Of a DNA stretch of 64,000 nucleotides, positions 6,942-56,112 are shown in pieces. Numbering within the stretch: position 1 is the first letter of the stretch; every line of letters begins with the position of its first letter. The notes beneath the pieces were generated by a model. The model worked only from the letters and a program-made list of their open reading frames with translations. It was not told where the DNA came from and searched no databases. A program made the position numbers and the translations under genes. The stretch is from Candidatus Heimdallarchaeota archaeon (lineage in GTDB: Archaea > Asgardarchaeota > Heimdallarchaeia > JABLTI01), in contig JAHLVW010000074.1 in assembly GCA_019058275.1 (NCBI GenBank), forward strand, positions 34,780 through 98,779, written 5' to 3'.

Positions 6942-7979
6942 TTATTTCAGCTTTGGATCTAAAGCGTCTCTTAAAGCATCTCCCATGAGGTTAAACCCAA
7001 GGATTGTAATGAATATCATTGTTGCAGGCCAAGTAGGCATCCACCAATATGTAAGCAAGTTATCACGGTGATAAGCTAAATCATCGCCCCATGAAACTGC
7101 AGTAGCATCACCTAAACCGAAGAAAGCCAACGCTGCAATAAACATCAAAGTATTTGCTATACCTAATGTTGTAATAACAATAACAGGTGATAGTGAATTT
7201 GGTATAACATGTCTAAAGATAATCCTCGAATCTTTTGCTCCTAACGCTCTTTCCGCTTCTATAAATTCCGTATTTTTCAGCGATAAAATCGTACTTCGTA
7301 CAATTAGACTGGTTCCGCCCCAGCCAATAAGTGCGAATATCGTTATTACGATCATATAGATTCCACCTGGAACAGATCCTGCTATATCTCTGAAGATAGC
7401 AACTATAAAGATAAACAAGATAAAACCAGGCATTGCAGAAATAACTTCATTTATCCTTTGTACTATGGTATCAAAAGCTCCACCATAGTAACCTGAAAAT
7501 GCACCAATTATCATTCCCAAAATACTTGTTGTCATTTGCCCAACAAAACCTAAAACGAGTGATAATGTTGAACCAAAGAAAGTTCTAGAAAGAATATCAT
7601 ATCCTCTTGTATCTGTTCCAAAAGGATACTGTGCATTTGGTGGCAGAATTTGATCTCCAGGTATAATGTATCTTGGATGTGCAATTAAACGTAGATACTT
7701 TTCTGTTCCAGGTATCCATAATTCAATATAGTAGTTATTTTGGTCCCATGGATCTGCTGTTGGATTATTCAACCCAAATAATGCATCATATTGCTGGATA
7801 AGAAAGGCGATGATTGCAACAGCAACTAAGAAGGTAACAATATAGAAACCGAACATTCCCATCTGATCTTTACGCATTCGTCTCATAACGAGAGCCCAGA
7901 GATTAGAACCCTCTACTAATTTTATTTCTTCAAGGATTCTTGCTTCTCTATCGATGCTTGTTTCATTTACAGTAGCCAA
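6942..7979 (-). CDS. dppC: Oligopeptide/dipeptide ABC permease, DppC/OppC family
   Basis: PFGTDTRGYDILSR, EFIEAERALGA (EAA loop), RHVIPN, NLMGDALRDALDPK. Confidence 0.9.
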   Translation of the reverse strand: MATVNETSIDREARILEEIKLVEGSNLWALVMRRMRKDQMGMFGFYIVTFLVAVAIIAFLIQQYDALFGLNNPTADPWDQNNYYIELWIPGTEKYLRLIAHPRYIIPGDQILPPNAQYPFGTDTRGYDILSRTFFGSTLSLVLGFVGQMTTSILGMIIGAFSGYYGGAFDTIVQRINEVISAMPGFILFIFIVAIFRDIAGSVPGGIYMIVITIFALIGWGGTSLIVRSTILSLKNTEFIEAERALGAKDSRIIFRHVIPNSLSPVIVITTLGIANTLMFIAALAFFGLGDATAVSWGDDLAYHRDNLLTYWWMPTWPATMIFITILGFNLMGDALRDALDPKLK

Positions 7980-7995
7980 TTCTTTATCATCTCCT

Positions 7996-9048
7996 TTAGT
8001 ATCTGATTCTTGGATCGACTAGAGCATAGCTCAAATCTACCAACAATCGAAAGACTAAGAATAATCCTCCAAATATGAAGTTCGTAGCCATCATCATAGG
8101 CTGGTCTCTTTGAAGAGCACTTGTTAAGAACACACTTCCTAATCCTGGCCAACCAAAGACGCCCTCAGTCATGACAGCTCCGGCAAGCAATCCAGGTAAT
8201 GCCATACCAACTACTGTTACAATTGGTAGGAGTGCATTACGAAATGCGTGCTTGTAAATGACTGATCGTTCAGCTAAACCTTTTGCTCTAGCTGTAGTAA
8301 TATAATCTTGTCTTAATATATCTAGTAATTGTGACCTCGTTAACCTTGCCAAAAACACTAATCCTGTCAAAACTAATGTCAATGTTGGGAGTATTAAGAA
8401 AACATAAAATGTACCATTAAGTATAAACGGTTCCCGGAATGCCTCACCTTGCGTTGCTCCTGTAAAGTTGAACATATAAAATGACGCCAACATTACCAGC
8501 TTAGCCAGCCAAAACGTCGGCATTGAATACCCTATTAGTGAAGCAATAGTTACTCCTTTGTCCCAAATTGAGTATTGTCTTGTCGCTTGAACAACTCCAA
8601 TTACCGTTGCTAGTATTGTACTAATAATAAATGCTGGTGTTGTTAAGAAAAGTGTATACCACATTCTAGAGACTATAATGTCTGTTATAGGCTTTCCTTG
8701 TTTTCCATCTTCAGACCAATACCACGATCGACCAAAATCTCCTTGTAAGATTCCACTTCGTATATAATCATTATTTTCATAGGACCATCTTTTCATAAGT
8801 CCAAGCCATTGGAAATAGCGTATAACTGAATTGATTTCTTCACCATCTGCATCAAGAATTCCGATTTCAAAACCAATTTCATCATATAATATATCATAGT
8901 CTGCTTGTTCTCCTTTAAACAGCCCCATCCGTATCTGAATAGGGTCTCCAGGAGATGCTGCTATTAGTGCGAAACTTACGATCGATATACCTAGTATAGT
9001 AGGAAAGATGTATATGATTCGCCTCATTGCATAATTTCTCAAAGACAT
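7996..9048 (-). CDS. dppB: Oligopeptide/dipeptide ABC permease, DppB/OppB family
   Basis: PGDP, GDFGRS, QDYITTARAKGL, KHAFRNALLP, EGVFGWPGLG, DPRIRY. Confidence 0.9.
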   Translation of the reverse strand: MSLRNYAMRRIIYIFPTILGISIVSFALIAASPGDPIQIRMGLFKGEQADYDILYDEIGFEIGILDADGEEINSVIRYFQWLGLMKRWSYENNDYIRSGILQGDFGRSWYWSEDGKQGKPITDIIVSRMWYTLFLTTPAFIISTILATVIGVVQATRQYSIWDKGVTIASLIGYSMPTFWLAKLVMLASFYMFNFTGATQGEAFREPFILNGTFYVFLILPTLTLVLTGLVFLARLTRSQLLDILRQDYITTARAKGLAERSVIYKHAFRNALLPIVTVVGMALPGLLAGAVMTEGVFGWPGLGSVFLTSALQRDQPMMMATNFIFGGLFLVFRLLVDLSYALVDPRIRY

Positions 9049-11331: not shown

Positions 11332-12825
11332 ATGTCAGAGCAATTGTTCGATAATTTAAAATTATTAAGTGATAATTCAAATCTATCAAATGTCTTTGAA
11401 AAGACGATGATTAAATTCTACCCTAAAGTTAAGGATATTAATCAACAGATTGCTTTGGACCTGGGTTTTCTCTATATTTTCAGACAATTAGAAAATGATG
11501 ATGATAAAGATGAACTTGTAAATTTTTGGCAAGAGAATTCAGAACCTAAGATTATACAACTCCCAATGGGAGAATTTCATTATAGACCATATATTGATTT
11601 TATTTTTTTAGATAAAATTATGAGTGGATTATTTATTGAGACAACATTAGAACAAATGTCGAAATTTGATAGTCTAACCTTTTATGAATCATGTGCTATT
11701 CTTTTTGATCTCGAGCGATATTTTATTGTGCCTTTATCTGAAATGGACGTAAAAATCATAGAAGCTATTAGGGGTTTTATTGGAAAGGATAAGTATTATA
11801 ATAATGATTTACTGTCGAAAAAACTCAAGGTTAGATCAAATTACATAAGTAGAAGAATTGGTTACCTGCGTAATAATGCTTATTTTCGAGTAACAGGAAC
11901 TGTTAACTTTCCGATGATTGGTTTGAATTTATACATTATCCTAATAGAGTCGTCTCCTGCTTATTACGATGTTATACCTCAGTTATTTTCATCTCCATAT
12001 ACAAGAACAATTCGACGATGCCCAAATCAACGGTTTGATTATATTGTGTCATTAACAATCCCAAAGCAATATGAACAAAATCTCTTTGATTATCTGCAGA
12101 GATTAAATAAACATGAGAAAATTCGATCATACTATTGTGACGAAGTAAAGGAAATAGCAAATAATCTTAACTTTTCATATTATACCTATTCAAAAAGACC
12201 TTCGGTTTTATCTGCTAATAAACCAGGATTTTGTATCGATTGGTTTAGAGAAAGAATATTGAGCTTATCAAAAAATACAGAAATAGGTGATAATTCAAAT
12301 TTTCACAAGTTTCCCTTTGAGGGAAACCAAGTTGATTTCTCTATCATGGATCTCAAAGTTATGACTCTGTTTAGAAGAGATCTTGATAGTTCAGTTCGAA
12401 CAATAGCAAAGAGATTAGCTCTCACTTGGGATGATACAAATTACCATTTGGAAAGAGCTAAGAAGCTTCTATTCCCAATGATATTATTGTATTACATGGG
12501 ATTGAATCAAACTGCTATCTTGTTCTTTGAGGAGATTTCTAAGAAACAGATCCTTCAACTACAAACTATTCTGACTCGAATGCCACAAACGTTTTCATAC
12601 TCTTTTAAAAATAAAGGAGCCATCGTAACTGTTGATTTAATGAATGGTTCACATCGTCTAAATGATCTAATTTGTGAAACATTGCCAGAACTAAAAAACA
12701 CACAATTCTCTTTAGCATCTAAAACTAGTGGTATTTTTAGACCGATTCCTTACAAATATTATAATGAAGAGGGGAAGTCTTGGATTTTTCCTGAAAATTT
12801 CTTTCTTCTTAATGATTTAAAATAA
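11332..12825 (+). CDS. Large regulator with tandem HTH and Lrp/AsnC-like modules
   Basis: Two HTH-like segments (LSKKLKVRSNYISRRI; SVRTIAKRLALTWDDT), each followed by an Lrp-like (N/Y)x3GL-hydrophobic strand. C-terminal P..Y.Y....K.W motif shared with 46357-48087. Confidence 0.6.
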   Translation: MSEQLFDNLKLLSDNSNLSNVFEKTMIKFYPKVKDINQQIALDLGFLYIFRQLENDDDKDELVNFWQENSEPKIIQLPMGEFHYRPYIDFIFLDKIMSGLFIETTLEQMSKFDSLTFYESCAILFDLERYFIVPLSEMDVKIIEAIRGFIGKDKYYNNDLLSKKLKVRSNYISRRIGYLRNNAYFRVTGTVNFPMIGLNLYIILIESSPAYYDVIPQLFSSPYTRTIRRCPNQRFDYIVSLTIPKQYEQNLFDYLQRLNKHEKIRSYYCDEVKEIANNLNFSYYTYSKRPSVLSANKPGFCIDWFRERILSLSKNTEIGDNSNFHKFPFEGNQVDFSIMDLKVMTLFRRDLDSSVRTIAKRLALTWDDTNYHLERAKKLLFPMILLYYMGLNQTAILFFEEISKKQILQLQTILTRMPQTFSYSFKNKGAIVTVDLMNGSHRLNDLICETLPELKNTQFSLASKTSGIFRPIPYKYYNEEGKSWIFPENFFLLNDLK

Positions 12826-43295: not shown

Positions 43296-44237
43296 ATGGC
43301 AACACTTCAATTATTCTGTGGCGAACTATTATCAGATATGATGCGCGCTTCCGCAAATCTACTGAAAAAGTATCGCAGACACTTAAATGCAATAAATGTT
43401 TTTCCAGTTGCTGACGGTGACACAGGAGCAAACATGTACTTAACAGTAGAGGCTATTATAGAAGAATTAGATAATAATAAAGCCTTAAACACAATAGAAA
43501 CAGCACAATTAATTGCCCGTGGATCATTCATGGGTGCAACTGGAAATTCAGGGGTTATATTATCACAGTTTTTTGGTGGATTTAGTAATTCTCTGGATAA
43601 TTATAACGAAATAGGACCTACAGAATTCTCACAAGCTTTTGTTGATGGCGCAGCAAAAGCATATGAAGCAGTTCTTAATCCACAAGAAGGAACCATTTTA
43701 ACCGTAATAAGAAAGTCAGCTGAAGCAGCAAGTTTAGCTGCAAAAAATGGCTCTAGTTTCTTAGATATGCTAGATACATCATATGAAGCTGCACAAGGAA
43801 CCCTTGAAAAAACACCAGAATTACTACCAGTGCTCAAAAAAGCAGGAGTAGTAGACGCTGGAGGACAAGGATTCGTCTATATTATGGAAGGATGGATTAA
43901 AACCTTCAAGAATGAAGATCTTGATGATGTCGGTGAAGTAGCTGAAGTTAAAGCAATAGCTCGCGATACAGAAGAAGATGATGAATATCAATTCTGTACA
44001 GAGTTTATCATTGAATCAGATGATCTAACAGCAGAATTCGCAAGAGAAATGCTTGGGATCATGGGTGGATCATTAGTAGTAGCAAAGAATGATAATATGA
44101 TACGAGTCCACATACATACAAATGAACCAAAAGTACTAATAAAACGATGCAAAGAACATGGTGCAATATCCCGACTCAAGATTGACGACATGTCAAAACA
44201 ACACAGAGAATTCTTATTCGTAGAAGAAGCAAGCTAA
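43296..44237 (+). CDS. fakA: Fatty acid kinase FakA-like (DAK2 plus middle domain, no C-terminal domain)
   Basis: NVFPVADGDTGANM, GNSGVILSQ, EGTILTV, GVVDAGGQG, FCTEF, VHIHTNEP. Confidence 0.85.
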   Translation: MATLQLFCGELLSDMMRASANLLKKYRRHLNAINVFPVADGDTGANMYLTVEAIIEELDNNKALNTIETAQLIARGSFMGATGNSGVILSQFFGGFSNSLDNYNEIGPTEFSQAFVDGAAKAYEAVLNPQEGTILTVIRKSAEAASLAAKNGSSFLDMLDTSYEAAQGTLEKTPELLPVLKKAGVVDAGGQGFVYIMEGWIKTFKNEDLDDVGEVAEVKAIARDTEEDDEYQFCTEFIIESDDLTAEFAREMLGIMGGSLVVAKNDNMIRVHIHTNEPKVLIKRCKEHGAISRLKIDDMSKQHREFLFVEEAS

Positions 44238-44255
44238 AATTAGAAATAGAAATAA

Positions 44256-44278
44256 ATTTCCTCCTTTTTGGAGGAAAT
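44256..44278 (+). terminator. Hairpin between fakA and degV
   Basis: ATTTCCTCC-TTTTT-GGAGGAAAT, followed shortly by a T-tract. Confidence 0.5.
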
Positions 44279-44358
44279 AACACTCTTTTTTTTATCAAAT
44301 ACTTTTATTATTGCAATAGTGCTAAATGCTAATGTTAATGGTTTGAGGAAAGTAGGCA

Positions 44359-45201
44359 TTGCAAAAGGTCAAGATAGTAACTGATAGTACATGCGATTTG
44401 CCAGATAAAATAGTGGAAGAATTAGCGATAATAGTCGTACCATTAAAGGTCTTTATGGATGATGCGACATTTACTGCAGGAATTGACCTTACAGCAGAAG
44501 AATTCTATGATAAAATGCCTTTCCTAAGAGATACCCCATCAACAACCCCTCCATCACCAGCCCTGTTTTTCGAAGCGTATGAAGACGCTGCAAGTGAAGC
44601 GGAAACAATAGTCTCAATACATATCTCAAGACGAATGAGTTTTACAATATAATCAGCAGAACAAGCCAGAAGCATGTTACCTATGATGGATATCAGGATT
44701 TTCGACTCCTTTACTACAGGAGCATCATTAGGACTGGTAGTATTAATGGCAGCATGGGCAGTAAATGAAGGGTTAACTATGGACGAAGTATGCGACATAG
44801 TAAAGATTGCGGTAGAACAAGTGAGAGTAATAGGCTTTCCAAGCACGTTAAAGTATCTAGTAAAAGGAGGAAGAATAGGAAGAGCACGAGGATTAGTAGG
44901 GAGATTATTAGGAAGAGTGCCAATACTAACAATAGCTGAAGGCGAAACATCAAGCTTAACAACAGTTCCAGGAGCAGAGGGAGCAATGGATTGGATGATA
45001 GAACACCTGAAAGAAGAAGGATTGGATAGTACATCAATAATAGCATTGACGCATGGAAACATGCCAAATGTAGCGGAAGTATTCAGAAGAAGAGTGGAAG
45101 GAACATTTGGGTGCAGAGTGCAGTACATAGGATTGGTAGGACCAGTAGTAGGGAGCCATTTAGGACCAGGATCACTGTTCTTCACATATATCAAAAAGTA
45201 G
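44359..45201 (+). pseudogene. fakB: DegV/FakB fatty-acid-binding protein interrupted by one in-frame TAA (44650-44652)
   Basis: KIVTDSTCDL, STTPPSP, IHIS..MS.T.*SA, DSFTT, LVKGGRI, GSHLGPG. Both ORF-track pieces are in the same frame, 281 codons in total. Confidence 0.8.
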
Positions 45202-45269
45202 TAAGTATTAGCGGAACTCTTTTAAAAAACAATAAAATAATTGAATGAAACAGGATGTAATGTAAAAAA

Positions 45270-45989
45270 ATGGCAATACATGAAGCAGTAGTATACGTAT
45301 TAGTTCTAATAGGAGGTTATTTGGTAGGAAGCTTTCCAACGGGATGGGTATTAGGAAAGGTAATGAAAGGAATAGATATTAGAGATTATGGGAGCGGGAA
45401 TACTGGCTTTTCAAATGTCTATAGGCTAATAGGGAAAAAAGCAGCTGCCTTAACAATCATAGGTGATGTAGTAATTAAAGGAGGAGTACTAGCTTGGGCA
45501 GCAAGACTGATAGTAGGATTAGTGGTAATACAACCAGATCCAATAAAAGTGTACACTTTCGGTTTTACAGATCTAGTAGGACAAGCAATAGTAGTTGGGG
45601 CAGGAATAATGTCAGTATTAGGACACAACTATCCTGTGTGGCTAAAATTTAAGGGTGGGAAAGGCATGGCAACTACTGCAGGAGTATTCCTTAATTTCGT
45701 ACCAGTATCAACAGTTGGGTTAGCTGTAGTGTGGTTTATCATTGTTTTTACAACAAGATATACCTCGTTAGCAAATGTGGTTACTACTCCAACTTTGCCA
45801 ATATTCATCTTTCTAGAGACCTACTATATAATGAAGTTTGATATTATAACATGCATACCACTCATAATCGGAGGTTTCTTAGCAGGAGTTTTCATTCTCT
45901 TCCGACACAGAGATAATATTAAACGACTCATTACAAAAGAAGAAAGGAAATTTGGCGATAAATCCGAAAGAATAGAAGAAAGTGCTTAA
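45270..45989 (+). CDS. plsY: Acyl-phosphate:glycerol-3-phosphate acyltransferase
   Basis: YLVGSFPTG, DIRDYGSGNTGFSN (motif 1), GHNYP..LKFKGGKGMAT (motif 2), RHRDNIKRL (motif 3). Confidence 0.92.
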   Translation: MAIHEAVVYVLVLIGGYLVGSFPTGWVLGKVMKGIDIRDYGSGNTGFSNVYRLIGKKAAALTIIGDVVIKGGVLAWAARLIVGLVVIQPDPIKVYTFGFTDLVGQAIVVGAGIMSVLGHNYPVWLKFKGGKGMATTAGVFLNFVPVSTVGLAVVWFIIVFTTRYTSLANVVTTPTLPIFIFLETYYIMKFDIITCIPLIIGGFLAGVFILFRHRDNIKRLITKEERKFGDKSERIEESA

Positions 45990-46104
45990 CTCGACAAAAA
46001 TCACTTTCAACTCTTCTTTGTGTGCAATTATTTTTCATCATTTCTGTATATGTACTAGATTTTAGATTATACTTTGAGAATTAAATAATGGTGAAACTAA
46101 AAAA

Positions 46105-46251
46105 ATGAGAAAAATTAATCCTAAAATCCTCGGCATAACATTTATGATCTTATCAATGCTTGTAGCTGGTGGTTTTGCAGTAAAAAATACCATAGCACCT
46201 GGTGGAGTAGGATTAACTGATGACTCAAATCCAGGAAATGGAGGCGAATAA
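46105..46251 (+). CDS. 48-aa putative secreted peptide precursor, copy A
   Basis: Not in the ORF track. MRKINPKILGITFMILSMLVAGGFAVKNTIAPGGVGLTDDSNPGNGGE*, with GGTGA SD. Paralogue of 48116-48262. Confidence 0.8.
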   Translation: MRKINPKILGITFMILSMLVAGGFAVKNTIAPGGVGLTDDSNPGNGGE

Positions 46252-46356
46252 TTCCTCTTTTCCATTATTTTTATTTCAGATATTTTTGTTTCCTTAGATT
46301 TTGGTCTATGTGTAGAAAACTTAAAATGCATTCTTTCGAAAATAGTTTAGATTAAT

Positions 46357-48087
46357 TTGACTGCTTTCAAAATTCCAAATGAAATAAGGCGAGAAATACA
46401 ACTAGTTATTGATGATATTAAAGAAAAAACTTGTTGGAAGCCATTAAGAAATCTTGAAGCATCAAAAATTGAGTTAGGAGATACATCAGAATTTTATGAT
46501 AGTTTTGGAGTAAATAGATTTAATACTAAAATTATTTTTGGTAATTGGATTAATAAAATAAAGCCAGATTATTCAAGGGAGAATATATGGGAAGCTGTCA
46601 TCATAAGGGAAGCATTTTCATATTTCATTAATGAAAATTTATTATTTAACAATCTCAAAGAATTAACGAATTTATTTTTAAACATTTTAATAATCAGCTA
46701 TCTGTTAAAGAAATATAGTGATAAAACAAAGTATCTTAAGATTTCATCAATAAGATATCGTTTTAGAGCTGAACCAGATGGATTACACGAGAAAGAGAAG
46801 ATACTTTTTCTCAAAATTAGTTCGCTTCTTGATGAAATTATCAATCAAGGAATTACATATAAATTAATTTTAGAAACTTATTTGCATTTAGTGGAAGATT
46901 ATTCAGAGGAAGACTTCGATATTGAGGAATTAATCGATGATTTCTCGCGTTTTATTTCAAGTAGTCCTGAAGAAATTGCAGCTCCATTAAATTTCAGAAA
47001 AAGAATGACTGAAATTTTAAGAGAATTAATCTTTGGGGGTTATAAAACATCCGCATTGAAAATCGCTGAAAATCTTGAAATAAACCAATCTACTGTTTCT
47101 AGACAAATAAACAAGATCGTATCTAGGTTTTATGCAAAATGGAGACCAATGAAAAATTGGAAGAAATTAGGTTTATATCCACATATAGTTATCATTCGAT
47201 TTAAAAAAACTGATAATAAGAAAATAAATAGTATTTCAAAAGAACTATTAAAAATTAGATATATTCACCAAATCTATGAAGGTGTAAATTGGGATTATTT
47301 TTATTTATACAGCATTGTTAATTGTCCTCTTATAGTCATTAATTCTATAGAAAATAAACTCATTAACTTAGCAAAAAACAATCAAATACTTTCTTTTGAC
47401 ATTAAATCTATTCTAAGTAGATTAGATAGAACTGCAATATCGAGTAAATCAATTAAACCTACATTGAAAAATTTTGAAGCTTTAATTGAGAATAAAATTC
47501 CAATTGAAAAAATAGCTATATGGAAATCAAGTTGGTTTCATGAAGATGATTTAGAAAATTTAGATAAATCGGATGAAAATATATTACGATTTCTTTCAGT
47601 TTTAAAATCAAATTCTATAACAAGTTATTCAGTTATTGGTTGTTGGGTTCCAGAAGCAAAAAAAATGTTAAAAGATAATGGTTATGACCTAAAGAACGTT
47701 CATGATTGTATGAACTTCTTTAATAAACTACAAAATACAGCTATGCAGAGGAATATACTAAGTTATAGATTAATGATATCACTAAATACATCTTCTTCAA
47801 ATTACTTAATTATTGTTATAAAAACTGATCCAGAAAACAAAAAAGTTAAAAAACTAGTTTCAGATCTTTCATGTTTTGCTTCGATTACCTTTTTCACTTC
47901 CAATAATGAACTTATAATTTCACTTATAGGACCTGAATTTAATGACTCACTTTCAAATATTATACAAAATAGGATCAAGCAAGATTATAATGAATTTGAG
48001 ATTTTCTCAACCAATCTAAAAAATTGGCGATTTGTTCCGTATCATGAATTATATGATTTTGAAAGCAAAAAATGGTTGATTAAATAA
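46357..48087 (+). CDS. Large regulator: helical N-terminal domain, HTH, Lrp/AsnC-like modules
   Basis: HTH SALKIAENLEINQSTVSRQINKI; NWKKLGLYPHIVII; C-terminal FVPYHELYDFESKKW. Confidence 0.7.
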   Translation: MTAFKIPNEIRREIQLVIDDIKEKTCWKPLRNLEASKIELGDTSEFYDSFGVNRFNTKIIFGNWINKIKPDYSRENIWEAVIIREAFSYFINENLLFNNLKELTNLFLNILIISYLLKKYSDKTKYLKISSIRYRFRAEPDGLHEKEKILFLKISSLLDEIINQGITYKLILETYLHLVEDYSEEDFDIEELIDDFSRFISSSPEEIAAPLNFRKRMTEILRELIFGGYKTSALKIAENLEINQSTVSRQINKIVSRFYAKWRPMKNWKKLGLYPHIVIIRFKKTDNKKINSISKELLKIRYIHQIYEGVNWDYFYLYSIVNCPLIVINSIENKLINLAKNNQILSFDIKSILSRLDRTAISSKSIKPTLKNFEALIENKIPIEKIAIWKSSWFHEDDLENLDKSDENILRFLSVLKSNSITSYSVIGCWVPEAKKMLKDNGYDLKNVHDCMNFFNKLQNTAMQRNILSYRLMISLNTSSSNYLIIVIKTDPENKKVKKLVSDLSCFASITFFTSNNELIISLIGPEFNDSLSNIIQNRIKQDYNEFEIFSTNLKNWRFVPYHELYDFESKKWLIK

Positions 48088-48115
48088 AAATAAAAGAAAT
48101 GTTGAAAAGAGGCTT

Positions 48116-48262
48116 TTATTCGCCTCCATTTCCTGGATTTGAGTCATCACTTAGTCCTACTCCACCAGGTGCTATAGTATTTTTTGCTGCAAAACCACCA
48201 GCTACAAGCATTGATAAGATCATTAAGGTAATACCGAGGATTTTAGGATTGATTTTCTTCAC
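48116..48262 (-). CDS. 48-aa putative secreted peptide precursor, copy B
   Basis: GTG start behind GGAG. MKKINPKILGITLMILSMLVAGGFAAKNTIAPGGVGLSDDSNPGNGGE*, 44/48 aa identical to copy A. Confidence 0.8.
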   Translation of the reverse strand: MKKINPKILGITLMILSMLVAGGFAAKNTIAPGGVGLSDDSNPGNGGE

Positions 48263-48489
48263 GTTTTTTAGTCTCCAATTATGATTTTCAAAATAAGATT
48301 CCAAAATAGATTATATTTAAACGACGAAAGCAAAAATAATGCATAAAAAAGGACATTTTAGTGTATTTATTTATCTTCATCAAATAATGACTTCAGAAAC
48401 ATCAATGTTTTTTCTATGTTTATCTAATATCTTTTAATATTTTTTCTCAACATTTTCATCAAATTTGTAGGTGTTAATATACTCATAAT

Positions 48490-49641
48490 TTGACTTTTTA
48501 TTGGGTTGAAAACTTGTACGAAGAAAGAGCATTAACAGATTCAAAATTTCCTAAGCTGAAAGAATTTTTCACTCCAAGTACTACTTCTTGGTTTGTTTTT
48601 GGAAGTATTATACTTGCAGGTATAATTGTAAGTATTTTTCTCTGGGACTTTACTTCATCAGATATGGATGTTTGGAAACAAGCAGCAGAACTTTTGCTAA
48701 GTGGAGAGAATCCTTATGAGACTACTCTCGAGAGTTTCCAATATGAAGGAATTAAACACTTCTATGCTTATTTTCCATTATGGATGTATATTAGCTCTTT
48801 GGTTTTGCTTGGTTTCCCAGAAGGGATGTTCTTTCCGATTATTAAAGGTCTAATTCTCTTATTCGATATACAAGTAGTTGTTTTACTTTACATATTACTA
48901 AAACCAAAAGTAGAAAATGTTTGGCGACTAAAAATACCCATTGCTGTTTGGTTTATAACACCCATGGTTTTGATGACCAGTTCTATGCATGGTAAGTTTG
49001 ATTCTTTGATGTTTGTTTTCATTTTACTTGCATTCATTTTCCATGATCAAGATTATTTCTTTCTCGAGGCTTTCTTCGTTGGTTTAGCAATTCTAACTAA
49101 ACCAATTGCTTTAATTCTTGTTCCATTCTTCTTTCTTCAAAACGTTCGTGAACGCAATTTTGATAAGATTCTTGCTAAGATGGCAACAATGTTAGTCGTT
49201 GCTCTGCTGTTTAGCATTCCTTTCTTAAATGATTTAGAAACATACTTTCAAGGGGTTCTAGGTGTCCATGTTACTCGAGAGCATGATCTAGGTCCAATTT
49301 TCGCTCTACTTTCTCTACCATTTTCATCAGAAAGTGCAGATGCTATTATTCGCATGATTCTTACAGTGTTAATCATAATTGTCTGGGTTGGTTTGATCAT
49401 CCTATCTTATATCAAAGAATACGATCTCTACAAAAGTTCTTTTCTTGCATTTATTTCCTTTAATTCCCTTTATTGGGTTTTCTTGATTCAATACGGTGTT
49501 TGGTGTTATACTTTGTACATACCATTTACTTCAAAATCTAAAATGAAGCACTGGCACTTAGCACTGACTACAGGAATAATTATAGCTTTTTCAACAACAG
49601 CATTAGCTCTAATGGGAGCATTCGTAAAAAATGGTCTATAA
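48490..49641 (+). CDS. GT-C fold membrane glycosyltransferase (GT87/PIG-M-like)
   Basis: SDM.VW...A..LL.GENPY, YAYFPL, GKFD, G.AI..K motifs, about 10 TMs. Confidence 0.75.
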   Translation: MTFYWVENLYEERALTDSKFPKLKEFFTPSTTSWFVFGSIILAGIIVSIFLWDFTSSDMDVWKQAAELLLSGENPYETTLESFQYEGIKHFYAYFPLWMYISSLVLLGFPEGMFFPIIKGLILLFDIQVVVLLYILLKPKVENVWRLKIPIAVWFITPMVLMTSSMHGKFDSLMFVFILLAFIFHDQDYFFLEAFFVGLAILTKPIALILVPFFFLQNVRERNFDKILAKMATMLVVALLFSIPFLNDLETYFQGVLGVHVTREHDLGPIFALLSLPFSSESADAIIRMILTVLIIIVWVGLIILSYIKEYDLYKSSFLAFISFNSLYWVFLIQYGVWCYTLYIPFTSKSKMKHWHLALTTGIIIAFSTTALALMGAFVKNGL

Positions 49642-50070: not shown

Positions 50071-51759
50071 GTGTTCAATACTTTGTCTAAAAATTCCAAT
50101 TCTCGAGATAATAATAAAGCTATAGCCATTATTGTTGGTATTTCAACTCCTTCTGAGGTTACTTTAATTGTTGATCCTAAAATCGCTCGAACAACACCTC
50201 TAGAGTTAGGTGAGCTAGTAGTTATTGATTATCCTAAAAATCTCGTACAAAAACCTGTTATTGCTATGATTTCAAAAATCGCTCTAAGTAATGAAAACTT
50301 AGTTGAAAGTTTAATCAAATCTCCTGAATCGATAGATCGTCTTAAATTACTCGGGCATATCGAAGAAGGAGAACGTTTAGGCGCAGCAGCAAGAATTCTA
50401 GGCTATTTAGATGAGGAAAGGGATCACATTGTTACTCCACGTTTTCCACCTTATCCAGGAGCAAAAGTCTCTAGAGCACCTTCTGAACTCTTATCGAAAA
50501 TTTTTGGAAAGGGACACATCTCAGTAGGTGAATTACGCTCACATAAAGGGGTAGAAGTAAAATTAAATGTTGATGAATTGGTCTCAAAACACTTTGCAGT
50601 TCTAGCAATTACCGGAGCGGGTAAATCCTATAGTATCGCAGTAATTGTCTCGAGGATAATCAATAATCTTCAAGGGTCAGTTGTCATTGTTGACCCGCAT
50701 GAGGATTATGTTCCATTTATAAAAAATAAGAATATTAATGGTAATATTACTGTTTTTTCAGCTAAGAGAACAACAGGTAGGCAAAGAATTGCTTTCAAAT
50801 TAAGTAATTTTGGTCATAATGCCCTTCTAGAACTTCTCGAGATACCAGAGCAAGCAACCATTCAAAGGGATTTACTAAGTAGAGCTTATTGGCGTTTACA
50901 AGAAAAGAAAGTTGATTGGGATTTACAAGATCTAAAAAACGAAATTAATGCTATAATAAAAGATCTAAGAGAAGATATAGTAATAGATGATAAAGGAAAG
51001 GAGCAAATTAGAAAGAGTAGTAAAGCAGAAGCAAATCGTTTAGAGAATTCCAAATTTGGTTTGTTCTCGAGAATAGACCTTGCTCCAGCAAGAGATGTAT
51101 TAACCAAAAGTTCAGAACTTCCTGTTTATAATGCAAATGCTCCTTCATTAGTTAAACCAAATCAAATAAGTATAATCACACTAACGGGATTAGGTTCCAA
51201 AACTCAACAAACAATTGTTGATTTAATTGCCAGAAAGATTTTCAATGCTGGCAAAGCACAAGTAAGAAATGAACTAACACCTCATAAATTACCATGTGCA
51301 GTTTTAATGGTTATAGAAGAAGCACATAACTTCATACCTGGTTCAGGTAGATCATCATCAATCTTAAAACAGATTGCTGCAGAAGGAAGAAAGTTCGGTG
51401 TGGGATTAGGTCTCGTTTCACAACGTCCTGGAAGATTAGATAGTGATGTGTTATCACAATGTAACACACAAATCATCCTAAAAATAGTAAATCCTTATGA
51501 TCAGCAACAAATTTTACGATCAAGTGAGAGTTTGAGCGAAGATTTACTAAATGATCTTCCAGCATTAAATGTTGGAGAAGCAGTAATAGTTGGCCCAAGT
51601 TTACCGATACCAGCGTTAGTTAGTATAGCTACATTTGATGGAAAACTTGGAGGTAAAGGAGTTCAAATTACAGAATCTTGGAAAGCAGCTCTTGAAAAAC
51701 AAAAAAGTTCGATAAGAAAACCTCAAAAATATGAAGATGACTTTAAATTGGATAAATAA
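50071..51759 (+). CDS. herA: HerA helicase
   Basis: HAS barrel, HFAVLAITGAGKS, DPH, IEEAH, EGRKFGVGL..VSQRP, SQCNT. Confidence 0.92.
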   Translation: MFNTLSKNSNSRDNNKAIAIIVGISTPSEVTLIVDPKIARTTPLELGELVVIDYPKNLVQKPVIAMISKIALSNENLVESLIKSPESIDRLKLLGHIEEGERLGAAARILGYLDEERDHIVTPRFPPYPGAKVSRAPSELLSKIFGKGHISVGELRSHKGVEVKLNVDELVSKHFAVLAITGAGKSYSIAVIVSRIINNLQGSVVIVDPHEDYVPFIKNKNINGNITVFSAKRTTGRQRIAFKLSNFGHNALLELLEIPEQATIQRDLLSRAYWRLQEKKVDWDLQDLKNEINAIIKDLREDIVIDDKGKEQIRKSSKAEANRLENSKFGLFSRIDLAPARDVLTKSSELPVYNANAPSLVKPNQISIITLTGLGSKTQQTIVDLIARKIFNAGKAQVRNELTPHKLPCAVLMVIEEAHNFIPGSGRSSSILKQIAAEGRKFGVGLGLVSQRPGRLDSDVLSQCNTQIILKIVNPYDQQQILRSSESLSEDLLNDLPALNVGEAVIVGPSLPIPALVSIATFDGKLGGKGVQITESWKAALEKQKSSIRKPQKYEDDFKLDK

Positions 51760-51818
51760 TGGAACTCAATTTATCCAAAATGAAGAATTTATTAATAAAA
51801 TTCGCAGGTGAATAGAAA

Positions 51819-53237
51819 ATTAGCGAGAAAAAGAATAAGGAATATCATTTCTGCCATACTGCTGATTGGCACTTAGATTATTTCCAATATAATAAAAGAG
51901 AGCGTTGGTATGATTTCTTTAAAGCTGCGAATGAATGCACAAAAATGATGATCGAAGAAAAACCAGACTTTGTTATTCATTGTGGTGATATGTTTCATCA
52001 ATTTAGGCCATCTCCTGGAGCTTTACGTTTTGCCATTCAAATACTTGATAAGTTTAGACAAGCAAACATTCCCTTTTATGTGATTAGAGGAAATCATGAT
52101 GCTTCAAAAGCTCAAGCCCAACGATTTGGTGGCACGGTTCTGAAATTCCTAGATGATTTGGGTTATCTTCAGTACGTTCAAGATGAAACAATTGATATCA
52201 ATGAACATATTCGATTTACTGGTATTGGTGAGTACGGCAAAACCACTGGAGATGTTATTGAAAATGTCCTAAGAAACAATCCGCTAGATGAATCCAAATT
52301 CAATATTTTAGCACTTCATGGTTATTTACAAGGGCAAGTAAGTGATTCAATTTTTGATATTTCAGGTTATCAATTAGCAAGTATAGGTTTTGACTACATA
52401 GCATTAGGTCACTATCATAAAGTATGGGAAGAAGCTGAAAACAGTATTTATTGTCCCGGTTCAACTGAACAAACAAGTTTGAACGATTGGGGAAAACCAG
52501 ACAAAGATGATTTCTTTAGAAAATCGGGATATTATAGCATTAAAACAACTTTAAACCCAGAAGAAAATTCTTGGGATTTGAAAGTTGAAAGAAAGGAATT
52601 TGATATTCGACCAAAAGGACGATTCACATACAATTTCACAGATGATTCAACGATTGATGAAATTATGGAAAAAGCTAATGCTTTTGTCAAGAAACATGAT
52701 TTAGAAGGTGCCATCATTAGATATGATTTTGTAGGTGAATTACCTTTAGGAAAGCAAAACTTGGTTAATTTTACAAAACTTCCAGCAATAAAAGAGTCAA
52801 AAGCACTGCATATAATACCAAATCAGCAAGTATCAAACATCATTTTGAGTAAAGCAAAAGCGGGATTAACATCAGAAGAAGCATTAAAAGAATTGCTAGA
52901 AAAATCATATAATGTCAAGAAGAGTTCAGTTAACAAATGGTTAGACATAACTAATGAAACCATTAAGGTTCTTGGGCAAAAAATAATCTCATCTGATTTA
53001 GCAGATGAAGTTAAGGCAATTTACAATTTAGTGTCTGAAATTTCATTACAATTAACTGAATCTGATATCAAAAAAATTGCAACTACAAAAATCAAAACAA
53101 AGAAATCAAAAAGTCAGCTAGCAAAACAACCAAAAACAAGTAAAAAACCAGTAAGCGGACCACCTAAAACTGCTAATCAGAACAATAAGGTGACAAAACA
53201 GGCTGATTTAGAGCATTTCTTTAAGGAGGGAGAGTAG
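51819..53237 (+). CDS. mre11: Mre11 nuclease
   Basis: Motif I HTADWHL lies upstream of the track's ATG, so the start is probably ATT at 51819. Also GDMFH, GNHD, LHG, ALGHYH, PGS. Confidence 0.9.
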   Translation: MSEKKNKEYHFCHTADWHLDYFQYNKRERWYDFFKAANECTKMMIEEKPDFVIHCGDMFHQFRPSPGALRFAIQILDKFRQANIPFYVIRGNHDASKAQAQRFGGTVLKFLDDLGYLQYVQDETIDINEHIRFTGIGEYGKTTGDVIENVLRNNPLDESKFNILALHGYLQGQVSDSIFDISGYQLASIGFDYIALGHYHKVWEEAENSIYCPGSTEQTSLNDWGKPDKDDFFRKSGYYSIKTTLNPEENSWDLKVERKEFDIRPKGRFTYNFTDDSTIDEIMEKANAFVKKHDLEGAIIRYDFVGELPLGKQNLVNFTKLPAIKESKALHIIPNQQVSNIILSKAKAGLTSEEALKELLEKSYNVKKSSVNKWLDITNETIKVLGQKIISSDLADEVKAIYNLVSEISLQLTESDIKKIATTKIKTKKSKSQLAKQPKTSKKPVSGPPKTANQNNKVTKQADLEHFFKEGE

Positions 53238-53238
53238 T

Positions 53239-56112
53239 ATGAAAACATTCGAGATTTCCAGTATTGAACTTGAGAACATCAAGACTTACAAATATGAAAA
53301 AATAGATTTCTATCAAGGAAATAATGTTCTAATAGGTGATAACGGAGCAGGAAAAAGCACTATTCTCGAAAGCATTTATCTATCGTTATTTGGAGATACA
53401 GTTCCTGGAAGAAATTTAGTTGACATGATAAGGTACGGGGAGAAGCAAGGCAAAATCATTATTCGATTTAATGTTAATGGTTCCAACTACAGAATAACAG
53501 ACGAATTAACTAAAAGAGAAGAGACAAGAGCAACGCAAACCCAAGTTTTGATTAATGAGACACTGGAAGATACAATAGCAGAAGGGAGAAATGCTGTTCG
53601 ACTCAAAATTGAAGAAATTTTAGATATAGATGCTACAACATTTATTAGTGCAGTATATGCTTCTCAAGGGGAAATTGGTCAAATTGTAACTGCAAAAGAT
53701 AAAGAACGAAAGAAGTTGTTTGACAGATTATTCCAAATAGATCGTTACGAAAAGGCTTGGAGTAATTTATCTAAAGTAGAGAAAATCATTAATTCAGAAA
53801 TAAATAATCTTGAAAATCATATTGATATTATTAGCAAAGATCTTACACAGTTACCAGAAATCGAAGATAATATTACTGAAAAGAAAACTCAATTGAAAAA
53901 TGATAAAAAGAACCTTTTGGGGTTAAGAACAACATACAAAGAATATGATCAAAAATACAAGCAACTAGATAAATTGGTGAGCAAACATAACAAATTGCTT
54001 GGTGAAAAGGGAACACTGGAAGAAGAGGAATCTGAGTTAAATCATCAGATTTTTGTTTTATTTGAAAGTATAAGTAGCAAAGCACGTGAAGAGATTAATG
54101 ATTTTAAATTGACTGATGCTAAGAAGTTACTAAAGAAATATGAAAACAAAGTAACTAAAGCAAAGGAATCATTGGAATCACTTCGTCAAGAAGAAAATAA
54201 CATCAAGATTGCTCTCGAGAAGAAAAACAATCTAGAAAGAACTTTTACGATATTAAATAACTCAATCATTCAAGAAACAAACAATCTAAATGGCGAGTTA
54301 GAGCAATTTAAAACAAAAATCTCTGAATTAGAAGATCCATTTGAGAATTGGGAAGTACAATTGCCAACATTAATGCAAAAAAGACAGAAAACACTTGAAA
54401 AAATCGAAAAACAAGAAAAAGAATTGCAGAAATCAATTAATAATATTTCAAAACTGGAAGTGAAATTAAAGTCCTTAAAAGAATCAGAAGACAGATACCA
54501 TTCAAGAATAGTTAAGAAGAGATTAATTTTATCACAAGAAGCTGGGGATTCATGGAAGGAATTGATAAATGATTTTTCAAAAATAAATTTCGATGAAAAA
54601 CTCCAGAAATTATCTTCTGATATTGATTCATTAGCAAAAAATCACTCTGAATTAGTAAATCAAAAAACAGTCACATGTGAAGGGCTGAAACGAATCCAAG
54701 GTGACCTTCAACATCTTAAAAGCTTGGATGGTGAAGAAACATGTCCAACTTGTAAGCAAACACTCTCTCCTGAAACATTCTACAATCTTCGCAATTCATT
54801 AAATAATGAAAAATCAGACTTACAAGAGAAAAAGAAAGAGATAGTACAAAAAATCAAAGATCTATCTTCCTTGCTTGATGAATTAAACAAAGAAGAGAAA
54901 GAATTAAGTAAACAACATCAATTATATGAAAAGATTGAACCAACATTTACAGACTTGCAAGATTTGGAAAAAGAGAAGAAGTCAGTAGAGGCATATTATA
55001 AGAAATTAGCTAAAGAAATTGATGTTTTGAAATCTAAATACTCAGTTGATAAAATCGATGAGCTTGAAATTGAGATTGATGACCTTAAAGAATCGATACG
55101 AGAAATTTCTGCATTGGAGAAAAGATTACCAAAATTTCTAATAAATAAACAGAAAATAAAGGAAGATACAACTGAAACCAAGAAACTAGAAGAAGAAATA
55201 TTGCAATTGAAATCAGAATTTGATGAAAAGACATATGTCAAAGTGAATGGAAAAATAAACAAACTGGAAGAAGAGCATGAACACTTTGCTGATATTTTGG
55301 AAATTTCTAAAGAATTAACTAGTAATTATGATGATTTAAAAGCAAACTCTGAAAAACTAAAAGCTAACTCTACAAAAATTGCTAAAATTGAGGTAATTGA
55401 TGACTTCAAAAATTGGGAAGATGTGAAAACAAATCGAGAGAAAATAGGTAATGATATTTCAGCATTGGAATCATCAGTAAATATGCTAGCTAATGAAGTA
55501 ATTCCACCTTTACTTGAACGAAAGAGGAAATTACAAGTAAAGGAGAAGGAATTAAAGAAAACTGAATCTGACTTAAAACTAGAAAATAAGAAAAAGGAAA
55601 TTGTATCGATACTTAGAGCATTGATGAGAGAGTTACCCAATAGATTATTGCCTAACTTTATTGAACGTATTAACAATGCAGCAACAGAAATATTACAATC
55701 AATAATCCCTGGAAGTGATATCCAGAGCATTATTCTAAATGATGATTATTCATTGAACATCATTCGCTTAGGGAATATCGAAAACATTACTGTGTTAAGT
55801 GGTGGAGAAACAATAATAATAGCACTTGCTCTTCGTTTAGCTTTCGCAAAAGAATTTTCAGCGTTAGATTCACTGATATTAGACGAACCGACGATTTTCT
55901 TAGATGAACGTAGAAGAGGGGAGCTTGTAACTGTATTAGAGAGAAATAGACTTGTAAGACAAATGTTCGTAGTTACTCATGATCCTGATTTTGAAAGAAT
56001 TTCAGATCAGACTTATTTTATAACAAAAGAAGGTGGCGAAACTACAGTAGAAGCAATTGATGATAAGGAAGAAACTGATGAGAATAATCTAATTAATCTC
56101 AAACTTTCATAA
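53239..56112 (+). CDS. rad50: Rad50 ATPase
   Basis: GDNGAGKS, SQGE Q-loop, coiled coils, CPTC zinc hook, LSGGE, LDEPT, VTH. Confidence 0.95.
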   Translation: MKTFEISSIELENIKTYKYEKIDFYQGNNVLIGDNGAGKSTILESIYLSLFGDTVPGRNLVDMIRYGEKQGKIIIRFNVNGSNYRITDELTKREETRATQTQVLINETLEDTIAEGRNAVRLKIEEILDIDATTFISAVYASQGEIGQIVTAKDKERKKLFDRLFQIDRYEKAWSNLSKVEKIINSEINNLENHIDIISKDLTQLPEIEDNITEKKTQLKNDKKNLLGLRTTYKEYDQKYKQLDKLVSKHNKLLGEKGTLEEEESELNHQIFVLFESISSKAREEINDFKLTDAKKLLKKYENKVTKAKESLESLRQEENNIKIALEKKNNLERTFTILNNSIIQETNNLNGELEQFKTKISELEDPFENWEVQLPTLMQKRQKTLEKIEKQEKELQKSINNISKLEVKLKSLKESEDRYHSRIVKKRLILSQEAGDSWKELINDFSKINFDEKLQKLSSDIDSLAKNHSELVNQKTVTCEGLKRIQGDLQHLKSLDGEETCPTCKQTLSPETFYNLRNSLNNEKSDLQEKKKEIVQKIKDLSSLLDELNKEEKELSKQHQLYEKIEPTFTDLQDLEKEKKSVEAYYKKLAKEIDVLKSKYSVDKIDELEIEIDDLKESIREISALEKRLPKFLINKQKIKEDTTETKKLEEEILQLKSEFDEKTYVKVNGKINKLEEEHEHFADILEISKELTSNYDDLKANSEKLKANSTKIAKIEVIDDFKNWEDVKTNREKIGNDISALESSVNMLANEVIPPLLERKRKLQVKEKELKKTESDLKLENKKKEIVSILRALMRELPNRLLPNFIERINNAATEILQSIIPGSDIQSIILNDDYSLNIIRLGNIENITVLSGGETIIIALALRLAFAKEFSALDSLILDEPTIFLDERRRGELVTVLERNRLVRQMFVVTHDPDFERISDQTYFITKEGGETTVEAIDDKEETDENNLINLKLS

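Follow-up and report, generated by a model that had tools for sequence, protein, structure and literature searches.

The window, which is the whole 64,000-nucleotide stretch of DNA analysed from a Candidatus Heimdallarchaeota archaeon (genome G000), contains a gene for a 576-residue regulator bracketed by two nearly identical genes for 48-residue peptides. The first-pass annotation took this arrangement as a peptide-pheromone cassette, in which the peptides are exported, trimmed, re-imported through Opp and bound by the regulator. The question is whether these genes form a peptide signalling system. The pairing of peptide and regulator, their co-variation and the non-TPR nature of the receptor hold up in the analysis described below, and export, trimming, re-import, binding and density sensing are the steps that this reading would add to them. 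The cassette is regarded as a strong candidate for a system by which archaeal cells signal to one another with peptides, though one that awaits proof.

Organization of the locus

The features of the locus are as follows.

45270-45989, + strand: left flank, PlsY-type glycerol-3-phosphate acyltransferase gene (PF02660; synteny), a locus marker for which no functional link is claimed
45990-46104, + strand: promoter region of peptide gene A, with a TATA-like sequence at 46045-46052 and an SD-like GGTGA at 46090-46094
46099-46275, no strand: left arm of an inverted repeat formed by the peptide genes; in the sister species G076, the enclosed regulator has the opposite orientation
46105-46251, + strand: peptide gene A, ATG start, 48 residues, on the PlsY side; it precedes the regulator gene on the same strand
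46198-46248, + strand: variable tail of A, the candidate signal (codons 32-48; family alignment and co-variation; putative boundary)
46357-48087, + strand: regulator gene, TTG start, 576 residues, soluble alpha/beta model
48092-48268, no strand: right arm of the inverted repeat whose left arm is at 46099-46275
48116-48262, − strand: peptide gene B, GTG start, 48 residues, tail-to-tail with the regulator gene, 28 nt past its stop codon
48119-48169, − strand: variable tail of B, the candidate signal (codons 32-48; family alignment and co-variation)
48263-48390, − strand: promoter region of B, with a TATA-like TTTAAATA at 48321-48314, an SD-like GGAGA at 48276-48272, and an upstream A-tract and T-tract
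48490-49641, + strand: right flank, GT87-like glycosyltransferase gene (PF09594; synteny), a locus marker for which no functional link is claimed

The interval from PlsY to GT87 holds only peptide, regulator and peptide, and all three genes are also annotated in the NCBI assemblies GCA_019058195.1 and GCA_050009915.1. A 39%-identical relative carries the label Candidatus Heimdallarchaeota. The peptide genes had been described as converging on the regulator. Both flank it, but only B converges with it; A lies upstream on the same strand, at a spacing of 105 nt. The position of B is that of the single peptide in related loci. When the GTG codon is read as Met, A and B are identical at 44 of 48 residues and differ by R2K, F13L, V26A and T38S and by six synonymous codons. 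Recomputation thus returns the earlier description of twin 48-codon genes with SD sites and with six synonymous and four replacement changes. Together, A and B make up an inverted repeat that is 177 nt long and has 86% identity. A Pfam IL31 match (E 0.004) is dismissed as chance.

Pairing of the peptide and regulator genes

A survey of 83 genomes of the class Heimdallarchaeia was used to determine whether regulator homologues have small signal-peptide genes beside them, as the first-pass annotation had proposed to check. A regulator locus was counted as intact when its relevant flank is intact, and a peptide gene was counted within about 1 kb. A peptide gene lies beside the regulator at 36 of the 39 intact loci; the three intact loci without one represent a single subclade. 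The result favours the first-pass annotation, which regulators without neighbouring peptides would have refuted. Among the 83 genomes, the regulator is found in all 11 other members of the window's family, and elsewhere only in G010, so that the pairing is carried by 12 of 12 genomes of one Heimdallarchaeia family, possibly Gerdarchaeales. The only pair of G010 is nearly identical to a pair of G075 and may be mis-binned. The peptide profile has the same distribution across genomes as the regulator. It gives 49 matches at E<1e-4 in the 83 genomes, which adjoin a regulator in 37 cases, lie at contig ends in 3 and are unlinked in 9. The peptide genes are not chance open reading frames, because 37 of the 49 matches adjoin a regulator.

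The window genome alone contains six regulator paralogues and seven peptide genes. The orientation of the peptide gene is convergent in the window's clade, and divergent or upstream in other clades. The basic unit of the family is one regulator and one peptide, and the twin arrangement is specific to this chromosomal locus. The genes next to the cassettes vary between loci, and no third gene is conserved across the loci examined. Stand-alone receiver proteins adjoin several loci of another subclade.

Distant relatives of the regulator occur more widely. Tandem-Lrp relatives are widespread in Thor- and Bathyarchaeia clusters, and relatives of 541-543 residues with the same degenerate motif (see below) are present in other Asgard groups. 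No peptide of this family lies beside the two distant regulator relatives examined in other Asgard groups, a search that covered this peptide type. Because relatives exist outside the peptide-bearing family, the regulator protein is older than this peptide family.

Architecture of the regulator

Pfam gives no family above cut-off for the 576-residue regulator, and its scores are far below the NCBIfam cut-offs for Lrp/AsnC. The AlphaFold2 model is confident (pLDDT 90.4, pTM 0.79) and divides the protein into the following parts.

46357-46971, + strand: zincin-like domain, residues 1-205 (structural match to thermolysin), candidate peptide-binding domain
46990-47442, + strand: first Lrp/AsnC unit (HTH and RAM), residues 212-362 (profile match to P. 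furiosus LrpA, E 3.3e-5; Lrp structures, Z 6.5-7.7)
47443-48084, + strand: second, degenerate Lrp-like unit, residues 363-576, which completes a tandem pseudo-dimer

The HTH predicted earlier in a large cytoplasmic regulator is recovered by the match to LrpA, and is located centrally (residues about 215-262). When the beta-rich part at residues 215-576 is compared with the tandem protein NirDL, 273 residues are aligned with Z 15.4, rmsd 5.6 and 11% identity, and Foldseek gives E 3.7e-7. No TPR family of Pfam is among the matches of 61 regulator family members. The earlier view that the receptor is not a TPR/RRNPP protein agrees with this result and with the zincin-like and tandem Lrp model.

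The N-terminal domain, which is alpha/beta in the model (residues 1-201), also folds confidently by itself (residues 1-207, pLDDT 90.8). Its match to thermolysin in VIA-align has Z 7.4, which is below the reliability mark of 8 of this tool, with rmsd 4.3 over 178 aligned residues. The next matches are DPP III, M1 and M3 peptidases and minigluzincins, with 170-185 residues aligned. Foldseek gives nothing at E<0.001 for this domain, its best zincin match being at E 0.44, and the ESM Atlas features fall in unnamed clusters only, with peptidase-like rows below 0.9. The position of the zincin motif HExxH reads REAFS (46606-46620). Glu85 is conserved in 54 of 61 alignment rows. The residue before it (84) is Arg or Lys in 59 of 61, and Arg, Ser or Leu predominate at position 88, such that the context R/K-E-x-x-S/R corresponds to HExxH without its histidines. 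An active peptidase is ruled out, since both zinc histidines are absent from the alignment. The assignment of this domain as zincin-like is plausible on the model, because the Z score is middling but unrelated zincin families fill the list of matches and the HExxH motif is recognizable in degenerate form. It is likewise plausible that the cleft of this dead peptidase serves as a peptide pocket.

Peptide precursors and their possible processing

The peptides of the family are 41-50 residues long. They begin with a KKINPK-like motif, continue with some 18 uncharged residues and end in an acidic tail rich in Gly and Pro. Peptide A has the same anatomy, with a basic n-region, an uncharged stretch at residues 8-26 and an acidic Gly/Pro-rich tail. 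Judged by composition, the precursors resemble signal peptides with n-, h- and c-regions. The N-terminal KKINPK motif is conserved beyond the need of a generic signal peptide. Cys is absent from all 37 peptides compared (0/37), which excludes a lipoprotein or a cysteine-linked peptide.

Two sites are candidates for cleavage, one after residue 25 (GFA, followed by V) and the other six residues on, after residue 31 (TIA, followed by P). The first-pass annotation named a signal-peptidase-like site after GFA. This site is present, but it is not the sole one, as the second, a small-x-small motif followed by P, D or E, is family-wide. In the window's clade, the residue at +1 of the second site is Pro. 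Bacterial signal peptidase I does not cleave before Pro, and direct cleavage at the second site is therefore disfavoured in this clade. Alternatively, the precursor may be cut at the first site and then trimmed to an X-Pro start. The genome encodes an archaeal signal peptidase I. The archaeal SPP family (PF06550) is not found in the window genome, which is 93% complete.

Parts of Opp/Dpp transporters are encoded in the genome, with 14 family-5 binding-protein matches over cut-off. The Opp/Dpp permease pair that had been linked to the cassette (6942-9048) consists of real genes, but it has no special tie to the cassette, because it is 37 kb distant and the genome has so many binding-protein matches of this family.

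Selection on the tail and co-variation with the regulator

Each subclade of the regulator carries a distinct type of tail. In the window's clade, the rank correlation between regulator identity and tail similarity is 0.66, and 0.63 after leader similarity is removed, as compared with 0.30 between regulator identity and leader similarity. The check for co-variation of receptor and peptide, also suggested earlier, thus gives a positive result across loci, although these correlations overstate the relation, because each tail sits next to its regulator on the DNA and loci that share ancestry do not count as independent. In this clade, the zincin-like domain has diverged no further than the remainder of the regulator.

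Copies of the peptide gene that are not linked to a regulator provide a comparison of another kind. The receptor-linked copy C42 and the unlinked copy C105 of the window genome have tails identical at 15 of 15 residues, with 9 synonymous and 0 replacement differences, whereas their leaders have 67% DNA identity and up to 15 replacement differences in the first 20 codons. The linked copy C282 and the unlinked copy C295 of G076 are also identical in the tail (15/15), with 8 synonymous differences, and unlinked and linked tails of G081 agree at 15/15 and 14/15 positions. Gene conversion alone is excluded as the cause of the identical tails, because 8-9 of the 15 codons differ synonymously; a near-identical stretch of 23 nt in G076 suggests that conversion contributed. 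As read from these codon differences, selection acts on the tail of the peptide. The first-pass annotation reached the same conclusion from the differences between A and B. The conclusion stands by virtue of the unlinked copies and of other species, but the A/B pair alone is weak evidence, because inverted copies can be homogenised.

The tail and the regulator also change together between species. C105 and C295 are syntenic, and the EF-2 paralogues of G000 and G076 are 94-95% identical. Between these two species, the linked and the unlinked copies have both changed the same five tail residues. The receptor of C42 is 43% identical to its G076 counterpart (partial, 397 residues), and 69% identical to the receptor of a more distant species, G080, in which the tail is identical. 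The simplest reading of these sequences would be that one genome-wide partner constrains the tail, which changes along with the regulator.

Exchange and inversion at this locus

The order PlsY-peptide-regulator-peptide-GT87 is kept in G000, G072 and G080, and in G078 as far as the contig reaches. In G076 the regulator is inverted, and each promoter stays with its own flank. The regulator of the window and its G076 counterpart are only 53% identical (dS 1.25, dN/dS 0.28), whereas the flanking proteins of the two genomes are 92-98% identical, with dS of 0.08-0.36 that is highest next to the cassette. Likewise, the regulators of G072 and G080 are 49% identical with dS 1.61, as compared with dS 0.30-0.69 for their flanks. 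High regulator dS within flanks of low dS indicates that the alleles predate the species split. The DNA identity between G000 and G076 is about 0.9 in the promoters and codons 1-25, and about 0.7 beyond codon 26. This drop indicates that the exchange points lie inside the peptide genes, between leader and tail. In these comparisons, the tail and the receptor act together as one exchangeable allele, on either side of which a promoter-leader half stays constant.

One inversion is seen among five genomes, and the three assemblies of the window species have a single common orientation. Contigs mapped to the locus break at a 37-nt stretch common to A and B and show no joint, and are therefore uninformative on inversion within the population.

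Promoters of the peptide genes

SD and TATA signals are conserved across the peptide genes. The promoter of A is 89% identical to the PlsY-side promoter of G076. When a matrix built from the peptide promoters of other species is run over the window genome, the promoter of B is the best site in the whole genome (39.6), followed by that of C42 (32.5) and then by a next site at 24.6. The same matrix misses the promoters of A and of the C105 copy, and no regulon emerged from this genome-wide scan. A sigma-70 promoter scan gives 17 sites as compared with 17.3 expected by chance, and this model is not applicable. The promoter layout shared within the window's clade is compatible with possible feedback by the regulator.

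Co-folding and alternative explanations

Co-folding with a C-terminal fragment, which had been listed as a check, was done with the regulator and peptide residues 19-48. The score is 0.48 as compared with 0.00 for the best control, and the runs share at least 68% of contacts, with a pLDDT of 45-49 for the partner. In the calibration, passes at 0.60 or below came from 7 of 80 solved complexes and were both of the 2 passes in 110 mismatches. The result is weak support for binding.

The data on pairing and co-evolution are all consistent with a tail that is the ligand of the regulator in a circuit private to each cell, which might delay a response or report on secretion, proteolysis or peptide uptake, and for which extra unlinked copies could merely raise dosage. 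This explanation is unlikely, because old swappable alleles are more easily explained by selection for distinct communication groups, as with the pherotypes of B. subtilis comQXPA (PMC4408185). A slightly smaller chance is given to a peptide that remains anchored in the membrane as a micro-protein, or that a different partner (a transporter, kinase or protease) senses outside the cell, with the regulator only controlling its transcription and travelling along. Residues 8-26 suffice for one membrane span, Pro at +1 could prevent cleavage, KKINPK is conserved more than a generic signal peptide requires, and stand-alone receiver proteins lie beside several loci of another subclade. Nevertheless, linked and unlinked tails have changed in parallel where the regulator diverged, no third gene is kept across loci, the regulator has a peptidase-like cleft domain, and the co-folding pass, weak as it is, points in the same direction.

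That the peptide is a bacteriocin-like or self/non-self effector with a dedicated activator is very improbable. Small exported peptides, multiple copies and fast turnover of alleles are known in such systems, but the tails here are short, acidic and Gly/Pro-rich, without Cys or amphipathic character, and no conserved transporter, modifying enzyme or immunity gene adjoins them. The repeats could also function as DNA, for instance as sites of inversion, as terminators or as the ends of a mobile element, with incidental open reading frames, as the 177-nt inverted repeat and the inversion of the enclosed gene in one species might suggest. This is hardly credible, since most loci have a single copy, the differences between copies are mostly synonymous, a codon pattern that largely refutes it, SD and TATA signals are conserved, and the enclosed protein is modelled as Lrp and zincin-like and matches no recombinase or transposase. 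Even taken jointly, the effector and DNA-element explanations receive little weight. An exported peptide that is re-imported and directly sensed by the cytoplasmic regulator, convergent on the logic of RRNPP systems, is the explanation that we consider likely.

Comparison with known systems

The cassette resembles the RRNPPA quorum-sensing systems of Bacillota (PlcR-PapR, NprR-NprX, Rap-Phr, AimR-AimP and Rgg-SHP) in that a small Sec-type precursor with a variable C-terminal peptide is encoded beside a cytoplasmic regulator. It differs from them by a zincin-like N-terminus, a central HTH, tandem Lrp units, an archaeal host and longer tails, and by the lack of homology; tails of 15-20 residues are long relative to RRNPP pheromones. 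RRNPPA receptors have a peptide pocket of 5-9 TPR motifs and an HTH or three-helix bundle at the N-terminus, and duplicated peptide genes and peptide-less receptors occur among them (PMC9765709). The cassette is not a member of RRNPPA, because the TPR pocket and the N-terminal HTH are absent. As a set of genes, the cassette is real, and it would sense peptides in the cytoplasm as these systems do, through an unrelated receptor.

Signal and receptor are co-inherited as diverged alleles in staphylococcal agr. B. subtilis comQXPA has pherotype polymorphism (PMC4408185). As in these systems, signal and receptor are deeply diverged alleles within conserved flanks. In contrast to them, the locus has no membrane histidine kinase or peptide-modifying enzyme. 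Its conserved flank also takes in the leader half of each inverted peptide gene, and these genes make inversion possible as well. The HTH and RAM units, two in tandem, are shared with Lrp/AsnC (FFRP) and NirDL/AhbAB proteins, which lack the extra 205-residue N-terminal domain and the linked peptide gene and, for NirDL, are only 11% identical. Lrp/AsnC regulators bind an amino-acid effector between their RAM domains and recognize specific DNA sequences, whereas NirDL/AhbAB are sirohaem decarboxylases with tetrapyrrole-binding residues, encoded among genes of haem biosynthesis. No haem-synthesis gene is among the identified, varied neighbours of the loci examined. IrrE/PprI proteins begin with a zincin domain, after which come an HTH and a sensor-like domain, and this order is also predicted for the regulator. 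However, the zinc protease IrrE is active and cuts a repressor (PMC6868357), whereas the zinc histidines are absent here and the C-terminal part is of Lrp type.

The accessible portions of two sources (PMC12240190, PMC13464002) present quorum sensing in archaea as a largely uncharted field, with few known cases and signals that have mostly not been identified. The archaeal signals described there, the carboxy-AHL of Methanosaeta and the disk-forming signal of Haloferax, are small molecules or unidentified, the latter being resistant to proteinase K and acting via a two-component system. The cassette would share the logic of a secreted signal with them, if the reading holds, and a gene-encoded pair of peptide and receptor is not named in those portions. 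Literature searches found no paper on this peptide-regulator family.

Proposed mechanism and its meaning

We propose that the small genes encode Sec-type precursors, the leader of which would be cut off at the membrane, so that an acidic tail of about 15-20 residues is freed outside the cell. The tail would re-enter the cell, probably through an Opp/Dpp transporter, and bind the regulator in the cytoplasm, the most likely site being the cleft of the catalytically dead zincin-like domain. Binding would alter the DNA binding of the tandem Lrp part, with putative effects on regulated genes and a possible role in density sensing. Several such channels, each with a different tail, would operate in one genome. 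At this locus, the promoter-leader halves would stay with the chromosome, and tail, regulator and tail would be exchanged as an old, pherotype-like allele that can flip between the inverted peptide genes.

The chances are about even that the whole represents an independently evolved, multi-channel system of peptide quorum sensing or kin recognition in Heimdallarchaeia, in which a dead metallopeptidase joined to tandem Lrp reads a re-imported peptide, and recombination within the twin leader genes swaps, and at times flips, the alleles of receptor and tail. The analysis names candidate ligands, their receptors, and natural cognate and non-cognate pairs. With these, synthetic peptides and recombinant protein suffice to test for peptide signalling in Asgard archaea, and no culture is needed. 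If the proposal is true, a pseudo-peptidase combined with tandem Lrp would represent a novel way to sense peptides in the cytoplasm, in a host class placed near the origin of eukaryotes.

Gene neighbourhood of the cassette

A set of fatty-acid metabolism genes, in which DegV is disrupted, lies to the left of the cassette in the window:
43296-45989, FakA (Dak2), FakB (DegV) and PlsY in a row
44359-45201, DegV gene, interrupted by TAA at 44650

The position of this set next to the cassette is conserved in relatives. The row represents a bacterial-type fatty-acid kinase together with an acyl-phosphate acyltransferase, in an Asgard genome. GCA_019058195.1 has G at the position matching 44650, and DegV is intact there as a 280-aa gene. 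The TAA in the window is either an assembly error or a nonsense variant. A folliculin/DENN-like gene (PF11704; 39258-41995) is located upstream of the cassette, and a cluster of HerA, Mre11-like and Rad50-like genes (50071-56112) is located downstream.

Rearranged and regulator-less peptide genes

The Dak2-DegV-PlsY-regulator block of GCA_011364945.1 (L060) is inverted relative to that of the window, and both peptide genes are arranged in tandem downstream of the regulator, where neither of them is called in the annotation. Peptide genes are also found without a regulator in the genome of the window (G000):
L043:3751-4022 (contig C105), two tandem peptide genes

Both are convergent with a gene for an M28/DUF4910 peptidase. 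The downstream member of the tandem, the second gene, contains TAA at codon 7 and is missing from the syntenic site of the sister species, G076. At loci in which the peptide gene is divergent from the regulator gene, stand-alone CheY-like receiver genes recur next to the pair (L040, L055, L093, L106, L107 and L111).

Distant relatives of the regulator

Distant relatives include:
window 11332-12825, 497-aa protein without a Pfam match, related to the tandem-Lrp part of the 576-aa regulator
L152:1904-6595 (genome G085), stretch with a pseudo-zincin/Lrp protein

The 497-aa protein is kept in several genomes of the window's family. Its gene is located roughly 2 kb from the Opp permeases, and no cassette-family peptide gene adjoins it. 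The G085 relative has a Cas6-like gene, accompanied by a CRISPR-like array, on one side and further cas-like genes on the other, and a short Gly/Pro-rich frame is present upstream of it.

Tail-like motif in larger secreted proteins

A PIxLDPG-GGG-like motif, which resembles the tails of the cassette peptides, directly follows the signal peptide in larger secreted proteins:
L042:1523-2236
L054:10928-12070
contigs C54, C98 and C1 of G000

Two of these proteins are encoded near regulators of the subclade that lacks neighbouring peptide genes, and could be a ligand source for those regulators.
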